UHGV virus genome: UHGV-0014568
DNA: 37,204 nucleotides
From: a virus
Reading direction: 5' to 3' (one strand)
Under the pieces are notes generated by a model. That model was not told the DNA's origin. It saw only the letters and a list, made by a program, of their open reading frames with translations, and ran no database searches. Positions 11,697 to 32,360 of this stretch are shown here, one piece after another; positions within the stretch are counted from its first letter, which is position 1; each line of letters begins with the position of its first letter. Made by a program: the position numbers and the translations under genes.

Positions 11697-11733
11697 TTGA
11701 CATTTAACGCACGAATTATTACCTTTTAGGTAA
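11697..11733 (+). promoter_or_regulatory. Promoter-like region (TTGACA at 11697-11702) with TTACC-N5-GGTAA palindrome (11719-11733) upstream of the tRNA cassette
   Basis: Consensus -35 hexamer; no good -10 at canonical spacing; operator-like palindrome TTACCTTTTAGGTAA overlaps the expected -10/+1 region. Confidence 0.35.
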
Positions 11734-12055: not shown

Positions 12056-12132
12056 GTGGCATTAGCTCAGTCGGACAGAGCAACCGCCTTCTAAGCGGTT
12101 GGTCGCAGGTTCGAATCCTGCATGCCACGCCA
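12056..12132 (+). tRNA. tRNA-Arg (anticodon UCU, reads AGA)
   Basis: Hand-folded cloverleaf: acceptor GTGGCAT/ATGCCAC, D-stem GCTC/GAGC, anticodon stem ACCGC/GCGGT with loop CTTCTAA (TCT at 12090-12092), T-arm GCAGG-TTCGAAT-CCTGC, discriminator G and encoded CCA. Confidence 0.85.
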
Positions 12133-14253: not shown

Positions 14254-14846
14254 TGATTACCATCCTGACGTTCTTTGAGTCGCTTCCTGGCTGCTGCTAT
14301 GCGATCAGCAATTGTCACATTCACATTAACATCCAGACGTTCTTTGAACGCGTTGACATCAACATGCTTACCAATCAGCTCAAGGTTCTTCACCTTGTCA
14401 GGCCATTTAATTTTTTTGAGGATTGTCTCTATCGAATCCTCGTTCATGTTCATGATGGTCGATGACAGATCAAAGCCACTAAGCGTAGTGCGCCAGATTT
14501 TCGGCCACTCACGGATTGGTTTAAGGCTCCCATCGTCGTTGAGGATGTCGATCACGTCCATCTGGTCGATCTCCACCAGGCGCATGAGAACGTAATCAGC
14601 ACTGACGCGCATTCGTTTGTTGCGCTCCTCCATCAACTCGGCAATCCGTTTTTGAATGCGTTCATCGCGCATCATGACACTGGCTTTAACTGCCGCTGTA
14701 TTTGGGGAGAATCCTGCGTTAATCGCTGCCTGAGTCTGGTTTTCAGGCGTTTTGATGTATGACTGGCAATAAGCCTCCTGCATTGCCGTTAGTGGCTTAA
14801 ATTGCGTTGATTTGCGTTTATAGGTTTTAGGTTCAGCAGGCATCAT
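14250..14846 (-). CDS. terS: Terminase small subunit
   Basis: Immediately upstream of and overlapping terL; ORF track starts at TTG 14924, but the in-frame ATG-ATG at 14846/14843 with a GGTGG RBS is the more likely start (about 198 aa). Confidence 0.65.
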   Translation of the reverse strand: MMPAEPKTYKRKSTQFKPLTAMQEAYCQSYIKTPENQTQAAINAGFSPNTAAVKASVMMRDERIQKRIAELMEERNKRMRVSADYVLMRLVEIDQMDVIDILNDDGSLKPIREWPKIWRTTLSGFDLSSTIMNMNEDSIETILKKIKWPDKVKNLELIGKHVDVNAFKERLDVNVNVTIADRIAAARKRLKERQDGNQ

Positions 14847-14863
14847 AACCACCGTGGTAATAG

Positions 14864-14878
14864 TTACCGTTGTGGTAA
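14864..14878. promoter_or_regulatory. TTACC-N5-GGTAA palindrome (TTACCGTTGTGGTAA) in the terS leader
   Basis: Exact operator-type palindrome 18 nt upstream of the preferred terS ATG, flanked by GTGGTAATAG direct repeats. Confidence 0.5.
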
Positions 14879-18349: not shown

Positions 18350-18694
18350 TCAGAACTCTTCGATGTTCCAGCCGCCACCTGCTTTCTTTGGTTTAACCGT
18401 TACCCCGATGATTCGGAACGGATACTGATCTGCGGCGACTTTGGTTTTCACCCTGGCGTCGTCGGTCCAGAAACCTTTCACTTCGTGCAGTTCCATCTCG
18501 CCGGTGGCGAGCATCACAGCAAAATCGGGCGTATAGAACGTGTTGTCAGCTAACCGCAGCTTGATACCCTCAAATCGATACCAGACGATTTCTCCTGCAC
18601 GTTTACGCAGCTCAAGGTGCTGGCAATACGCAGATTCTGTTTTGTTCATCTGTCCTGTTTTGAGTCGACCAAGAGCCTGTATCTGTTTTCTCAT
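18350..18694 (-). CDS. Small PD-(D/E)XK-like (DUF1064/VRR-NUC-like) nuclease-fold protein
   Basis: 114-aa ORF with TPDF...ELHEVK...K arrangement typical of a minimal PD-(D/E)XK core; AGGGG RBS. Confidence 0.4.
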   Translation of the reverse strand: MRKQIQALGRLKTGQMNKTESAYCQHLELRKRAGEIVWYRFEGIKLRLADNTFYTPDFAVMLATGEMELHEVKGFWTDDARVKTKVAADQYPFRIIGVTVKPKKAGGGWNIEEF

Positions 18695-18697
18695 GAT

Positions 18698-18774
18698 TTA
18701 CCCCTAAGGTAATTAAAAACCACATAAGACACGAAATCAATAGATTTTAGAATATTTTATTACCTAACAGGTAA
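18698..18774. promoter_or_regulatory. Intergenic control region with two TTACC-N5-GGTAA palindromes
   Basis: TTACCCCTAAGGTAA (18698-18712) and TTACCTAACAGGTAA (18760-18774) flank an IHF-like AATCAATAGATTT and an AACCACATA motif, between the P-like gene and the nin-like genes. Confidence 0.5.
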
Positions 18775-18794
18775 TTATCGAAACGTAAAAAAAT

Positions 18795-19612: not shown

Positions 19613-20457
19613 GCTTCAGGGCTGTTCCAGTGCGGAACGTTGTTATCAGGTAATGTTGATTGCTTCTGTCTGCTAATCTGCAGCCGCCTTGCCAGCTTCT
19701 GCTCCCACTGTGCCTGATGGTATGCCTTACCCTCAGCCATCCAGTAAATTCTGAACTCTGCAAGTTCCTGTGCCGTTGGCAGACTGTCCAGGTAGATCCC
19801 CTGCAATGAGCTTTTCCGAAGAAAGTCATCTGATGGCTGCCATTGTTCATGCATGACAAATTTGCCTAATTGCCCTGGCCCACCAGGAGGAACAAAGTTA
19901 TTCATCACGGCGTTGTTTGCGCCGGGGTCATGAGGCACAGAATTCCCGTTTTTTGTCCTGCTCTCCCTCTCTTGGTTAAATGACTGGTTATATGACTGGT
20001 TCTGGATCCCGTTTTTGGGATCATTCAACATCCCGTTTTTGGGATCATTCAACATCCCGTTTTTGGGATCATTCAACATCCCGTTTTTGGGATCATTCAA
20101 CATCCCGTTTTTGGGTATATTCCCGTTTTCGGTAACATTACCGTTTTCGGGTTCATTACCCCCTTCCCGGTTGCCTTTAATGTTCCCGTTTTTGGTTATA
20201 TTAAGAGAGAAAACCCGCACTCTTTTCGTCGCTCCCTTTCTCTCTCCGGTATCTGAAATAAGCCCCATTTTCATGAGCGATATAAGCCCGGCCTGCACGG
20301 TTTTTTTATTCAGGCAAGTGTCTTTAACGAGGCGTTCTATGCTGGGGTAGCAGAGGTTATATTCATCGGCTCTGTCAGCCATCGAGAGCAGTATGAGCTT
20401 TAATGATGAGCTGCCTGGATCTGTCTCCCAAGCCCAATCTGTTGCATGTCTGCTCAT
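19594..20457 (-). CDS. Replication initiator (O-like position) with DnaT-like C-terminal domain and internal iteron-encoded repeats
   Basis: 287-aa ORF; C-terminal GKFVMHEQWQPSDDF...YWMAEGKAYHQAQWEQKLARRLQ resembles E. coli DnaT; contains GMLNDPKN x4 encoded by the 24-bp iterons; GGAG RBS. Confidence 0.65.
   Translation of the reverse strand: MSRHATDWAWETDPGSSSLKLILLSMADRADEYNLCYPSIERLVKDTCLNKKTVQAGLISLMKMGLISDTGERKGATKRVRVFSLNITKNGNIKGNREGGNEPENGNVTENGNIPKNGMLNDPKNGMLNDPKNGMLNDPKNGMLNDPKNGIQNQSYNQSFNQERESRTKNGNSVPHDPGANNAVMNNFVPPGGPGQLGKFVMHEQWQPSDDFLRKSSLQGIYLDSLPTAQELAEFRIYWMAEGKAYHQAQWEQKLARRLQISRQKQSTLPDNNVPHWNSPEAWEDFL
20006..20101. repeat. Four perfect tandem 24-bp direct repeats (ATCCCGTTTTTGGGATCATTCAAC), probable replication-origin iterons
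   Basis: Exact head-to-tail copies at 20006, 20030, 20054 and 20078, followed by degenerate CCCGTTTT(C/T)GG copies to about 20215 and preceded by a TGACTGGTT x2 repeat; all inside the replication initiator gene. Confidence 0.7.
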
Positions 20458-20753: not shown

Positions 20754-20800
20754 TTACCTTTAAGGTGCGAATAGATATGAAAAGACCGCCGGATGGCGGC
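20754..20800 (-). promoter_or_regulatory. Region after the cro-like gene: operator-variant TTACCTTTAAGGTG plus GC hairpin (possible tR1-like terminator)
   Basis: 5-bp GC stem CCGCC/GGCGG followed on the minus strand by CTTTTC; also a copy of GAATAGATATGA. Confidence 0.3.
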
Positions 20801-20823
20801 CTACAGAGGGTTGTGGCTGGATA

Positions 20824-21054
20824 TCATGAGTAGAAGAAGTATGCCAGTTCTGCTTTTGAGCGCAGCCATTGTCTTGTTTTACAGGCTTTAAAAAGCCCAT
20901 TCATCAATACCTTACCTGGCATTTTGCGCTTACCTGTTAAGTGAGTCTGGATATAGTGACTCGTCGTTCCGGCTTCCTGTGCGAAGGCTTCACGCTCATC
21001 CGGAGTAAGTGCAAGCCAGTGCTTTTTGAAATCGAAATGTCCGTTATCGCTCAT
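20824..21054 (-). CDS. Cro-like small HTH regulator
   Basis: 76-aa ORF divergent from the repressor gene across an operator-rich gap; HTH-like segment LTPDEREAFAQEAGTTSHYIQTHLTGKR; first gene of the long minus-strand series. Confidence 0.5.
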   Translation of the reverse strand: MSDNGHFDFKKHWLALTPDEREAFAQEAGTTSHYIQTHLTGKRKMPGKVLMNGLFKACKTRQWLRSKAELAYFFYS

Positions 21055-21091
21055 AGCTATTGCCTGATATTTATTTCAGATAATAAATATT

Positions 21092-21185
21092 CACCCATAA
21101 GGTAACAAAAATCAAGGATAGTTACCTATGGGGTGCATTTACCTGTTGGGTAATATTGCTTTAAATTGAATCATCTACTGATTCA
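21092..21185. promoter_or_regulatory. OR-like divergent operator/promoter region
   Basis: Inverted pair CACCCATAAGGTAAC (21092-21106) and GTTACCTATGGGGTG (21121-21135), exact TTACCTGTTGGGTAA (21139-21153), and a separate perfect palindrome TGAATCA-N5-TGATTCA (21167-21185). Confidence 0.6.
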
Positions 21186-21208
21186 TATATGAGGCGATTT
21201 TCCAGAAA

Positions 21209-21793
21209 ATGAAAAGTATCCAGGACGTCCGCAGGCAAAATCTCAACGACTTGATCGACCGTGAATTCAATGGTGTTCAGACGCGGATGGCAGAAAAACT
21301 TGGAACTCAGGCAAATCTGGTAAACCGCTGGGCTCTTGGCAAGAAGGTTATCGGCGACCAGGTTGCGCGAAAAATTGAAGCTGCCGCCAATAAACCCCGT
21401 AACTGGCTTGATATCGATCGCTCGCTTTCTCAAGAAGGTTTTCAGCCTGTCGGACCAAGCGACATTGGTCAGCTGGCGGCTCACAACCTGGAACGCTGGA
21501 TGAGCGAAAGCCGAGACCTTTCAACGCAGGGAAAACTTCACCGCGCATCCGGCGTCGCCCAGGTGACAATCAGCCGCCTGTTAAACAATGAGGTCAGCGT
21601 TTCCATTTCCACCCTGGAGAATGTTGCATCCGCATTCGGGCGTCACGGCTATGAATTACTGATTCACCCGCACGACCCTGCGACTATCAACTATGATCGC
21701 TCGCGCTACGCATTGTTACCTGAAACAGAGAAGGCAAAGATCGAAAGTTACATTGAATTTGTCATCAACCAGAACGAAAAAAGCAAACAATAA
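21209..21793 (+). CDS. Prophage repressor candidate (CI position) with two XRE-type HTH domains and no peptidase domain
   Basis: 194-aa ORF between the OR-like and OL-like regions, with its own terminator; two HTH-like segments (QTRMAEKLGTQANLVNRW and GVAQVTISRLLNNE); no Ser/Lys S24 autopeptidase motifs seen. Confidence 0.5.
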   Translation: MKSIQDVRRQNLNDLIDREFNGVQTRMAEKLGTQANLVNRWALGKKVIGDQVARKIEAAANKPRNWLDIDRSLSQEGFQPVGPSDIGQLAAHNLERWMSESRDLSTQGKLHRASGVAQVTISRLLNNEVSVSISTLENVASAFGRHGYELLIHPHDPATINYDRSRYALLPETEKAKIESYIEFVINQNEKSKQ

Positions 21794-21815
21794 AACTATA
21801 GTTTTCAGAAAGTAA

Positions 21816-21837
21816 GCCGCCTCATGGCGGCTTTTTT
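21816..21837 (+). terminator. Rho-independent terminator after the repressor gene
   Basis: GCCGCC-TCAT-GGCGGC followed by TTTTTT. Confidence 0.7.
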
Positions 21838-21850
21838 ATTGCCCATGAAA

Positions 21851-21927
21851 TTACCTTACGGGTAATTTTTTTAACTCATATCTATTGACAACAAACCAAA
21901 TACGCATAATTATTACCTAAACGGTAA
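21851..21927 (+). promoter_or_regulatory. OL/PL-like promoter with two TTACC-N5-GGTAA operators
   Basis: TTACCTTACGGGTAA (21851-21865), -35 TTGACA (21885-21890), CATAAT-like -10 region and TTACCTAAACGGTAA (21913-21927) just before the first gene of the plus-strand operon. Confidence 0.55.
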
Positions 21928-21946
21928 CAAGCCGAGGTAACAAGTT

Positions 21947-22099
21947 ATGCAGTGGAAAATCATCAACGGTTGGTACTGCGTTACTGCATGCGGATTCATG
22001 AGCTGGAAGTTCCGCACATTACAGGAAGGCATTAAGTGGGCTTTCGTCAGCAAAGAAGCTCGCGATGTGGCCAACGATAACGAGATATGGGAGGGCTGA
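21947..22099 (+). CDS. Small protein, first gene of the PL-like operon
   Basis: 50-aa ORF with GAGG RBS 8 nt upstream; below track cutoff; Trp/Cys-containing. Confidence 0.3.
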   Translation: MQWKIINGWYCVTACGFMSWKFRTLQEGIKWAFVSKEARDVANDNEIWEG

Positions 22100-26952: not shown

Positions 26953-27269
26953 AATTCACCCGTATAGAAACCATTTTCATGACGGTATGAGAGTATACCT
27001 TTCGGGTAATACCGTCACCTATACCGTCGAAAAATGTGGTGTAGAGTGAATAGATATGAGTAGATATAAACAAAAACCCTCTGCAATTACAGAGGGTTAG
27101 GGAAGACATTGAATAGATATGATGTGCTATGAACTAGCTATACATCATTCCCACTCAATTATTTACGAAAGCCATAACCAATTGAGTGATAACATTTTTC
27201 CAAAACCTCATTTTTTTAGTACCGTTTTATATACCGTCACCGGAAATCAGTACCATGAAAAATGCCATG
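26953..27269. other. Candidate attP region with arm-type repeats
   Basis: TACCGTC core four times (26981-26987 inverted, 27010-27016, 27022-28, 27232-27238), (T)GAATAGATATGA twice (27048-27059, 27111-27122), in the gap between int and Rz. Confidence 0.35.
27064..27098 (-). terminator. Rho-independent terminator ending the lysis/late transcript
   Basis: 9-bp perfect stem AACCCTCTG/CAGAGGGTT with 6-nt loop, followed on the minus strand by TTTTTGTTTAT. Confidence 0.65.
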
Positions 27270-31961: not shown

Positions 31962-32026
31962 TTACCTGAAAAACCACATATGGATAGATAACCCATAAAT
32001 ACGAACAGATATCACCTTTCAGGTAA
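31962..32026. promoter_or_regulatory. Long-range inverted repeat TTACCTGAAA ... TTTCAGGTAA with AACCACATATG motif between tailspike and the LexA-box gene
   Basis: Half-sites at 31962-31971 and 32017-32026 are exact reverse complements, 45 bp apart; AACCACATATG at 31972-31982. Confidence 0.4.
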
Positions 32027-32063: not shown

Positions 32064-32083
32064 TACTGTATAAATATACAGTT
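32064..32083 (+). promoter_or_regulatory. LexA (SOS) box overlapping a promoter
   Basis: TACTGTATAAATATACAGTT is a near-match to the LexA consensus TACTGTATATATATACAGTA; TTGATA -35-like hexamer at 32060-32065; 20 nt upstream of the ATG at 32103. Confidence 0.7.
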
Positions 32084-32102: not shown

Positions 32103-32360
32103 ATGCAGCAGTATCACTATCCACTGGAAGACGGATTTACCGAAAGGATTCACACGCCGGGAGGCGTCAGGTCACTGGTGGAGGGATCGCACTTGATGAA
32201 ATTACTCCGGGATCTCGATAAGGATGGATTTAATGTCGATGGCCCACTTGCCGAACTGACTGCACTGATTAACTACGTCACCAGCTCACAGATGTCTATG
32301 CAGGATCTGCAAACACATCTCGACTATTGTGCCGAACAATTGCGAAAACAAACCACATAA
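32103..32360 (+). CDS. Small SOS-regulated protein, candidate antirepressor
   Basis: 85 aa from ATG 32103 with GGAGAAG RBS (track's TTG start at 32085 is less likely); opposite orientation to the flanking virion genes; no family recognised. Confidence 0.5.
   Translation: MQQYHYPLEDGFTERIHTPGGVRSLVEGSHLMKLLRDLDKDGFNVDGPLAELTALINYVTSSQMSMQDLQTHLDYCAEQLRKQTT

Follow-up and report, generated by a model that had tools for sequence, protein, structure and literature searches.

How a temperate phage could hold and then release its lysogenic state when its repressor lacks a self-cleavage domain is the question raised by positions 20824–21927 of the viral genome UHGV-0014568, which we analysed over its full 37,204 nucleotides (nt; hereafter, the window). 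In this region, a gene for a 194-amino-acid (aa) protein, here called rep, stands between a gene for a 76-aa Cro-like helix-turn-helix (HTH) protein and a promoter resembling PL of phage lambda. We conclude that the region is very probably the lysogeny control and immunity switch of an Escherichia coli phage of the phiV10/epsilon15 type, following the logic of Salmonella phage SPC32H with its repressor Rep, its antirepressor Ant and LexA. The window represents a temperate podophage of the genus Uetakevirus: its segment 20700–22000 showed 97.8% nucleotide identity to Escherichia phage phiV10, a further 16 E. coli phage records were almost as similar, and the Enterobacter phages Tyrion and BUCT554 matched at approximately 77%. 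The features of the immunity region, with the operators between the Cro-like gene and rep designated OR and those at the PL-like promoter designated OL, are as follows (bp, base pairs; ORF, open reading frame).

20783–20802, minus strand: intrinsic terminator of the Cro-like gene (terminator scan).
20824–21054, minus strand: Cro-like gene, which encodes the 76-aa HTH protein and opens the rightward operon (ORF list).
21080–21115, minus strand: candidate PR-like promoter of the Cro-like operon, either TTGTTA-17-TATTAT (promoter scan) or TTGATT-17-GAATAT.
21091–21105: O_R1, TCACCCATAAGGTAA, one mismatch, inside the candidate rightward promoter; half-sites 100% and spacer 78% conserved in nine phiV10-clade loci.
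21122–21136: O_R2, TTACCTATGGGGTGC, two mismatches; half-sites conserved at 1.00 and 0.96 and spacer at 0.60 in the nine loci.
21139–21153: O_R3, TTACCTGTTGGGTAA, perfect, the operator closest to rep, present in 12 of 12 aligned OR regions.
21167–21185: perfect palindrome TGAATCA-N5-TGATTCA, located 24 bp before the start codon of rep.
21209–21793, plus strand: rep, the gene of the 194-aa repressor (ORF list).
21814–21841, plus strand: intrinsic terminator of rep, an 8-bp G+C-rich stem (21814–21833) followed by the T-run TTTTTATT (terminator scan).
21851–21865: O_L1, TTACCTTACGGGTAA, perfect, upstream of the −35 element of PL.
21885–21913, plus strand: PL-like candidate promoter TTGACA-17-AATTAT (promoter scan, 10/12 matches).
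21913–21927: O_L2, TTACCTAAACGGTAA, perfect, overlapping the −10 element and start region of PL.

The layout agreed with that proposed in a preliminary description of the region made from its letters alone. The 194-aa ORF was followed by a terminator of its own, rep was divergent from the Cro-like gene and upstream of the PL-like promoter, that is, in a cI-like position, and operator clusters bracketed it, with three copies of TTACC-N5-GGTAA on the side of the Cro-like gene and two on the side of PL. In the phiV10 record, the terminators after rep and after the Cro-like gene are annotated at matching positions, and the 194-aa gene is annotated as a 'putative transcriptional repressor, two helix-turn-helix motifs'.

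The assignment of the 194-aa protein as the prophage repressor, likewise part of that description, was borne out by its closest characterized relative. Rep is identical at 193 of 194 positions to ORF21 of phage vB_EcoP_ZX5, the one difference being S192N, and the DNA around the two genes is 97–98% identical. Overexpression of ORF21 reduced free phage to zero and lowered the mRNA of endolysin by 99.99% and that of holin by 99.97% (PMC9782041). According to the authors of that study, ORF40 of phiV10 (gp40; DQ126339) has the same sequence as ORF21 (PMC9782041).

A profile search of the 194-aa protein had been proposed as a check, and it returned HTH families together with a full-length match to SPC32H Rep. 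Pfam placed HTH_3 at aa 106–147 (E=1.2e-9) and, below threshold only, a YdaS/Cro-type HTH at aa 21–61 (E=3e-4), while PHROG repressor families matched aa 1–76; in NCBIfam, neither Rep nor the Cro-like protein nor Ant had a family above the cut-off. By phmmer against PDB, aa 1–190 of Rep aligned with aa 2–197 of the SPC32H Rep chain 5D50_A (E=3.5e-42), and the C-terminal half also matched 5D4Z. The overall identity to the crystallized SPC32H Rep was 42–44%. Homologues of Rep are common in enterobacterial prophages, where they formed 86 clusters, all of approximately 194 aa. An AlphaFold model built on 25 homologues (predicted local distance difference test, pLDDT, 78) consisted of two helical bundles, with helices at 4–59, 86–151 and 164–192 and a disordered linker at 75–83. 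The best Foldseek matches of this model were 5D50 and 5D4Z, with target-normalized template-modelling scores of 0.65–0.70 over the C-terminal half, followed by XRE-family HTH domains such as those of SinR, DdrO and P22 C2. From these comparisons, Rep is predicted to consist of the following parts (approximate boundaries).

aa 1–72: N-terminal HTH DNA-binding domain.
aa 73–85: linker.
aa 86–152: HTH_3-like middle dimerization domain.
aa 153–194: tail for tetramerization and Ant binding.

A secondary description of SPC32H Rep gives the same order, namely an N-terminal DNA-binding domain (DBD), a middle dimerization domain (MDD) and a p53-like C-terminal domain (CAD) for tetramerization and Ant binding, with Phe187 and Phe190 forming the tetramer interface (PMC9986798). 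In the alignment, these two residues correspond to Tyr181 and Phe184 of the present Rep, and Phe184 was invariant both among the five phages first compared and among the 25 homologues. The tail residues I160, Y162, D163, Y167, L170, P171, E174, K175, K177, I178, F184, Q188 and N189 were invariant between the clades, which fits a preserved Ant interface despite the low overall identity. At the other end of the protein, the segment NLVNRW was invariant in the five phages first compared, all of which carry the TTACC half-site. The net charge was +5 for the N-terminal domain and 0 for the middle domain.

The description of Rep as a dual-HTH protein thus stands at the level of the fold, given the HTH_3 match, the two helical bundles and the XRE-family matches, but the second module is not supported as a second DNA reader, since it is the MDD in the solved homologue. 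By analogy with that homologue, the second HTH module appears to correspond to a dimerization module, and this fits the charge distribution, the invariance of NLVNRW and the alignment of the tetramer interface. We also considered that both modules might read DNA, the N-terminal one recognizing TTACC-N5-GGTAA and the middle one recognizing the TGAATCA palindrome for autoregulation. Judged by its sequence, the middle module is a genuine HTH_3, and the phiV10 and SPC32H clades differ in this module as well as in the palindrome. However, in the crystal structures, according to the secondary description, this module forms the dimer interface (PMC9986798), and it lacks the positive net charge of the N-terminal domain; we regard a DNA-reading role for it as very improbable.

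With regard to induction, Rep gave no match to Peptidase_S24 in Pfam at E<0.1, where only HTH-type families were returned, and a peptidase domain was carried by none of its 86 homologues (0/86), in agreement with the earlier proposal of a repressor without such a domain. The cI-like position, with a cro-like gene running divergently and a PL-like promoter lying downstream, is what a repressor of the lambda CI type, inactivated by RecA-stimulated self-cleavage, would also show. This negative domain result, the match of the C-terminal half of Rep to the MDD/CAD structure and the presence of an antirepressor gene with a LexA box together make that type of repressor barely conceivable here. The lack of a peptidase domain implies that RecA cannot trigger self-cleavage of Rep; Rep would therefore need another route to SOS induction, which a LexA-controlled Ant would provide. 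The preliminary description overlooked this implication of the missing domain, which is induction via a LexA-controlled antirepressor. The relevant features lie between a tail-fibre gene and a structural gene, approximately 10 kb from the immunity region.

32066–32081: perfect LexA box CTGTATAAATATACAG in the predicted ant promoter, 22 bp before the start codon of ant.
32103–32360, plus strand: ant, encoding an 85-aa antirepressor; match to PDB 5D50_E 'Anti-repressor protein' (E=1.3e-47, approximately 87% identical); PHROG 450.

In addition, PHROG 1760 ('anti-repressor') matched aa 27–75 of Ant. The LexA box at 32066–32081 was the only CTGT-N8-ACAG in the window with a spacer composed entirely of A/T, and no LexA box was found inside OR or OL. 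A LexA box is located directly upstream of ant in SPC32H (L007, position 19958), and one is present in the corresponding intergenic region of both ZX5 and Tyrion. In another secondary description of SPC32H, Ant is described as a tetramer that binds two Rep dimers and breaks the Rep tetramer (PMC9638917). In ZX5, the small ant is also present, as an unnamed 'hypothetical protein' ORF with a LexA box (L002, 25899–26156). The ZX5 study credits a different protein, the 231-aa Bro-N protein ORF4, as antirepressor (PMC9782041). In our comparison, the C-terminal 74 residues of this Bro-N protein (L002, 26472–27167) were 42% identical to the small Ant, indicating that the Ant module exists both free-standing and fused.

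Next to the repressor and its antirepressor, the switch requires operators. The repeated element of OR and OL is the palindrome (A)TTACC-N5-GGTAA(T), of 15–17 bp. The centres of the OR operators are spaced by 31 bp (O_R1–O_R2) and 17 bp, and the two OL operators are 62 bp apart; the latter spacing is kept in five phiV10-clade prophage loci (L010–L014), in Tyrion and in SPC32H. Among nine related loci whose repressors are 54–100% identical, the half-sites were conserved at 96–100%, compared with 60–80% for the 5-bp spacers. The non-consensus half-sites, TCACC in O_R1 and GGTGC in O_R2, were conserved as well. Conservation of half-sites including their variants is, at the level of sequence, the signature of real operators with a putative built-in affinity hierarchy. 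The pattern of OR plus OL was repeated in seven prophage loci of Citrobacter, Escherichia, Raoultella and Serratia, and the −35 block of the candidate PR promoter, AAAAATCAA on the plus strand, was invariant in five of the compared phages. In the Serratia relative, the HTH of the Cro-like protein has diverged, while the Rep segment (NLISRW there) and the operators are both kept; for this reason, Rep is favoured as the reader of the TTACC-N5-GGTAA sites.

The spacers of the operators differ between groups even though the half-sites are identical, being A/T only in SPC32H, mostly A/T in the Klebsiella phage and mixed G/C and A/T in the phiV10 clade. Any immunity specificity between clades may thus come from the shape of the spacer or from flanking bases and not from the half-sites.

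Around the start of rep, the only candidate for a Shine–Dalgarno sequence was GAGG, 14 nt 5′ of the ATG (21191–21211), and a GAG at a similar distance from the start is conserved in most phiV10-clade relatives. This long spacing may keep the translation of Rep low. In hand-picked candidates for the rep promoter, the second position of the −10 element lacked the conserved A.

The 76-aa protein matched PHROG 35 'transcriptional repressor' (E=5.6e-13); its similarity to PDB 8BNY was weak and of HTH type (E=0.18), and no family in Pfam or NCBIfam matched it. The protein is strongly conserved across relatives, with the recognition segment AGTTSHYIQ(T/V)HLTG. By position, this predicted small HTH protein would be of the Cro type, being the product of the first gene in the operon divergent from the repressor gene. 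In the leader of its gene (21067–21090), a 9-bp perfect inverted repeat of A/T only was observed, ATATTTATT-N6-AATAAATAT, which is only partly kept in Tyrion and BUCT554.

The palindrome TGAATCA-N5-TGATTCA between OR and rep was present and perfect at the position first reported for it, and this was its sole perfect copy in the window. Because dinucleotide shuffling of the 154-bp OR region yielded a perfect 7-bp inverted repeat with a gap of 0–12 bp in 21% of cases, the palindrome is not significant on its own. In nine phiV10-clade loci, its arms were conserved at 0.90 and 0.94, compared with 0.73 for the loop, and the adjacent non-palindromic sequence was equally conserved (0.91–0.95). At one locus (P0079), matched changes on both arms keep the symmetry. 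The palindrome was absent from the aligned OR regions of the SPC32H, Klebsiella and Serratia relatives; in SPC32H and the Klebsiella relatives, its position is taken by a degenerate operator half-site.

The preliminary description had read this palindrome as the Cro-like protein's own site, so that repressor and Cro would recognize different sequences. The location, between the operators and the rep start codon, is one where a bound protein could block the expression of rep, and the arms are better conserved than the loop, with the symmetric changes in P0079. Against this proposal, the recognition segment of the Cro-like protein, AGTTSHYIQTHLTG, is identical in SPC32H, which has no palindrome, and in the Klebsiella phage, again without palindrome, it differs by one conservative change from Thr to Val. 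The segment is thus nearly identical with and without the palindrome, and the element is of single copy, no better conserved than its neighbourhood and readily produced by shuffling. We therefore did not retain the proposal of two specificities, which is improbable on this evidence.

The palindrome may, alternatively, have no regulatory role of its own and represent chance symmetry or a part of the rep promoter or leader, an explanation to which we give a little less than an even chance. The result of the shuffling test and the equal conservation of the flanks are in its favour. So is the behaviour of the corresponding RNA, since the 19-nt hairpin reached merely −5.1 kcal/mol, its 56-nt context gave a z score of −0.03 and the equivalents in Tyrion and BUCT554 do not fold; a reading of the element as an RNA hairpin was rejected for the same reasons. 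In opposition to chance, both arms are exact in four loci with Rep 58–70% identical, and the loop is different in each. To our knowledge, the palindrome fits none of the consensus sequences of ArgR, CRP, FNR, IHF and PdhR. In an Rfam scan of the whole window at the gathering threshold, a tRNA-Arg was the single match. Altogether, the palindrome is possibly a functional element, conserved moderately and within the phiV10 clade only.

The operator sequence was not confined to OR and OL. Perfect copies of TTACC-N5-GGTAA occurred seven times in the window, compared with 0.01 expected, and copies with at most one mismatch occurred 13 times, compared with 0.51 expected; neither count was reached in any of 100 shuffles (0/100). 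The copies outside the immunity switch are the following.

11719–11733: perfect operator site, upstream of a small gene preceding the portal gene.
14846–14878: tandem operator sites at 14846 and 14864, between a terminator and the terS start codon.
18698–18774, minus strand: PR2 cassette, in which perfect sites at 18698 and 18760, spaced by 62 bp, flank the candidate promoter TTGATT-17-TTTAAT, upstream of a DUF1064 gene.
20754: weaker operator copy, just beyond the terminator of the Cro-like gene.
26995–27009: operator-like site ATACCTTTCGGGTAA, approximately 45 bp upstream of int.
32012–32026: operator-like site TCACCTTTCAGGTAA, in the intergenic region between ant and the tail-fibre gene.

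These positions are shared with relatives. The PR2 pair was found at the same position in four genomes; the terS-side position is shared with SPC32H (L007, 12) and Tyrion (L009, 67 and 85), and the portal-region position with SPC32H (3175), Tyrion (3969) and the Klebsiella phage (34570). The site preceding int occurs as the same one-mismatch variant at the same position in SPC32H, Tyrion and the Klebsiella phage, and the site at 32012 is perfect in ZX5 and has counterparts at an equivalent position in SPC32H, Tyrion and the Klebsiella phage. Wherever the region in question exists in the complete genomes of SPC32H, Tyrion and Klebsiella phage BUCT711, each extra position carries a site. Operator sites recurred in 11 related genomes or loci, and at least 12 sites at approximately eight positions were conserved across Uetakevirus genomes from Escherichia, Salmonella, Enterobacter and Klebsiella. 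This conservation suggests a repressor regulon that extends well beyond OR and OL.

The PL cassette (21846–21949, plus strand) and the PR2 cassette (18692–18780, minus strand) aligned without gaps with each other and with two cassettes of SPC32H, sharing an operator, the −35 motif CTATTGA and a second operator overlapping the −10 element. In terms of sequence, the phage uses the same predicted operator–promoter–operator cassette twice. PR2 is preceded by the replication genes and a terminator and may therefore serve the nin-like genes as an independent promoter under repressor control.

On a tentative view, which we think could be right but would not call probable, one tetrameric Rep directly silences nearly every transcription unit of the prophage, including the late genes, int and the ant region, probably by bridging pairs of sites. 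The sites outside OR and OL might instead be bound mainly by a protein other than Rep, such as the Cro-like protein or a late regulator. The sites at terS and in the portal region sit at late genes, which classically have no need for the prophage repressor, and proteins of the Cro type usually share the operators of the repressor. The extra sites, however, match the OR and OL operators in half-sites and spacing, and the Serratia relative described above retains the operators and the Rep recognition segment with a diverged Cro-like HTH. Binding mainly by another protein is therefore unlikely.

Taking Rep as the reader of these sites, the switch would operate as follows. The N-terminal HTH would read (A)TTACC-N5-GGTAA(T), the HTH_3-like module would dimerize and the C-terminal tail would join two dimers into a tetramer, so that one tetramer would present two DNA-reading heads. 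According to the secondary description of SPC32H, the tetramer is the DNA-binding form of Rep, and the two DBDs on one palindrome belong to different dimers (PMC9638917). With three operators over the divergent promoters of the cro-like gene and rep and two flanking PL, occupancy would shut both early operons in the lysogen. The pairs of 31 bp (O_R1–O_R2) and 62 bp (PL and PR2) would suit an arrangement in which two sites are clamped by a single tetramer or by two tetramers. In the crystal of Rep(92–198), the two MDD pairs, which are the attachment points of the DBDs, are reported to lie approximately 100 Å apart (PMC9986798). Because of this distance, the 31-bp spacing (approximately 105 Å) could be spanned without bending, and looping or a second tetramer would be required for the 62-bp pairs. 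Upon DNA damage, LexA would leave its box in the ant promoter, the 85-aa Ant would bind the C-terminal region of Rep, and Rep would come off the DNA. In relatives, repression has been shown with the near-identical ZX5 protein, and control by LexA in SPC32H, where alone tetramer formation and release by Ant have been shown too. For this phage, we infer the filling order of the operators, the transcription starts and the bridging of operator pairs.

Several points weigh against this account of the switch. The identity of Rep to the crystallized protein is low, so that its oligomeric state and its sensitivity to Ant are extrapolated from SPC32H, and the experiments on binding, transcription and induction stem from relatives and not from this exact sequence. 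The Bro-N antirepressor credited in ZX5, which has it in addition, is absent from the window, where the small Ant stands alone. In a consensus promoter scan, there was no good sigma-70 match upstream of rep. Finally, within OR it is the operator closest to rep that is perfect, a difference from lambda that makes the filling order and autoregulation uncertain.

Compared with known systems, the SPC32H Rep/Ant/LexA switch (Kim & Ryu 2013, J Virol; Kim et al. 2016, PNAS) is the nearest. Each testable feature of an SPC32H-type Rep was found here, namely the homology, the domain layout, the aromatic interface, the small Ant beside a tail-fibre gene and the LexA box. The two phages share the genus, the gene order, full-length Rep homology with the DBD–MDD–CAD layout, the closely similar Ant with a LexA box at its gene, and TTACC/GGTAA half-sites at the same genomic positions. 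They differ in the sequence of Rep, in the operator spacers and in the OR palindrome, which in SPC32H gives way to the degenerate half-site; moreover, SPC32H has a third PL operator.

The region also resembles the cI–cro region of lambda in its divergent repressor and cro-like genes, the three operators between them, the second operator set at a leftward-type promoter and the terminator after cro. In contrast to lambda, it has no S24 peptidase domain, and by analogy it would be induced by a putative antirepressor and not by RecA-dependent cleavage; its repressor is predicted to be a tetramer of HTH-like and p53-like modules, and the operator occurs at approximately six further loci. The switch is lambda-like in layout but lacks the self-cleavage feature by which the CI/LexA family is defined.

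Induction through a LexA-controlled antirepressor is known from Tum of phage 186, AntC of N15 and GfoA/GfhA of the Gifsy prophages. These systems share the logic proposed here, in which the repressor is not cleavable and the SOS signal is relayed by a LexA-repressed antirepressor gene outside the immunity region. In their 2013 abstract, Kim and Ryu are said to describe the SPC32H Ant as structurally distinct from the antirepressors of siphoviruses and myoviruses. A parallel outside phages is Rco of the Bacillus plasmid pLS20 (TetDloop, with p53-like tetramerization), which combines an N-terminal HTH with a C-terminal strand–helix tetramerization domain, has an antirepressor partner and has been proposed to loop DNA between operator sets (PMC9986798). 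Rco differs in having no middle dimerization domain, in its unrelated replicon and host and in the absence of detectable sequence similarity in the tail.

On the other side of the switch, the Cro-like gene is followed by a small gene of Zn-ribbon-like type, a DnaT/O-like gene and a replication gene resembling lambda P. The PL-like operon heads towards int and contains a 50-aa gene and other small proteins, RecE/RecT-like recombination genes, an AlpA-like (xis-like) regulator and a methylase. Within the DnaT/O-like gene, 4.6 perfect tandem copies of a 24-bp unit (20006–20115) encode the peptide repeat NGMLNDPK and are followed by degenerate 18-bp repeats (20105–20160). Both sets of repeats are probably origin iterons within the initiator gene, as in lambda O. 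The attP core published for phiV10 and ZX5, ATTGAGTGGGAATGATT, was present at 27143–27159 on the minus strand with one mismatch; phage DNA lies on either side of it, indicating that the window has the arrangement of an unintegrated phage and not that of a prophage junction. The tRNA-Arg gene (anticodon TCT; 12056–12132, plus strand) lies between the terminase and portal modules and is found at the same place in SPC32H and ZX5.

The rep switch itself is already known from the crystal structures and genetics of SPC32H and from the ZX5 repressor, one residue away. The present finding re-identifies a characterized switch and is useful mainly for annotation: the 194-aa gene should be named rep (SPC32H-type repressor), and the ORF at 32103–32360, which has a LexA box in its promoter, should be named ant. 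Possible novelty is limited to the map of operators across the genus, with their fixed spacings, and to the palindrome specific to one clade. If Rep occupies the wider operator set, this would be a compact case of whole-genome silencing by a single tetrameric repressor, and such silencing of the whole prophage would differ from the cascade of lambda; the site pairs of 31 and 62 bp would then offer a testable geometry for the published 'trans' DNA-binding model. For the biology of the phage, the prophage should be SOS-inducible despite a repressor without a peptidase domain, a point of relevance to the phiV10-type phages of E. coli O157 and to the reporter phages engineered from them.

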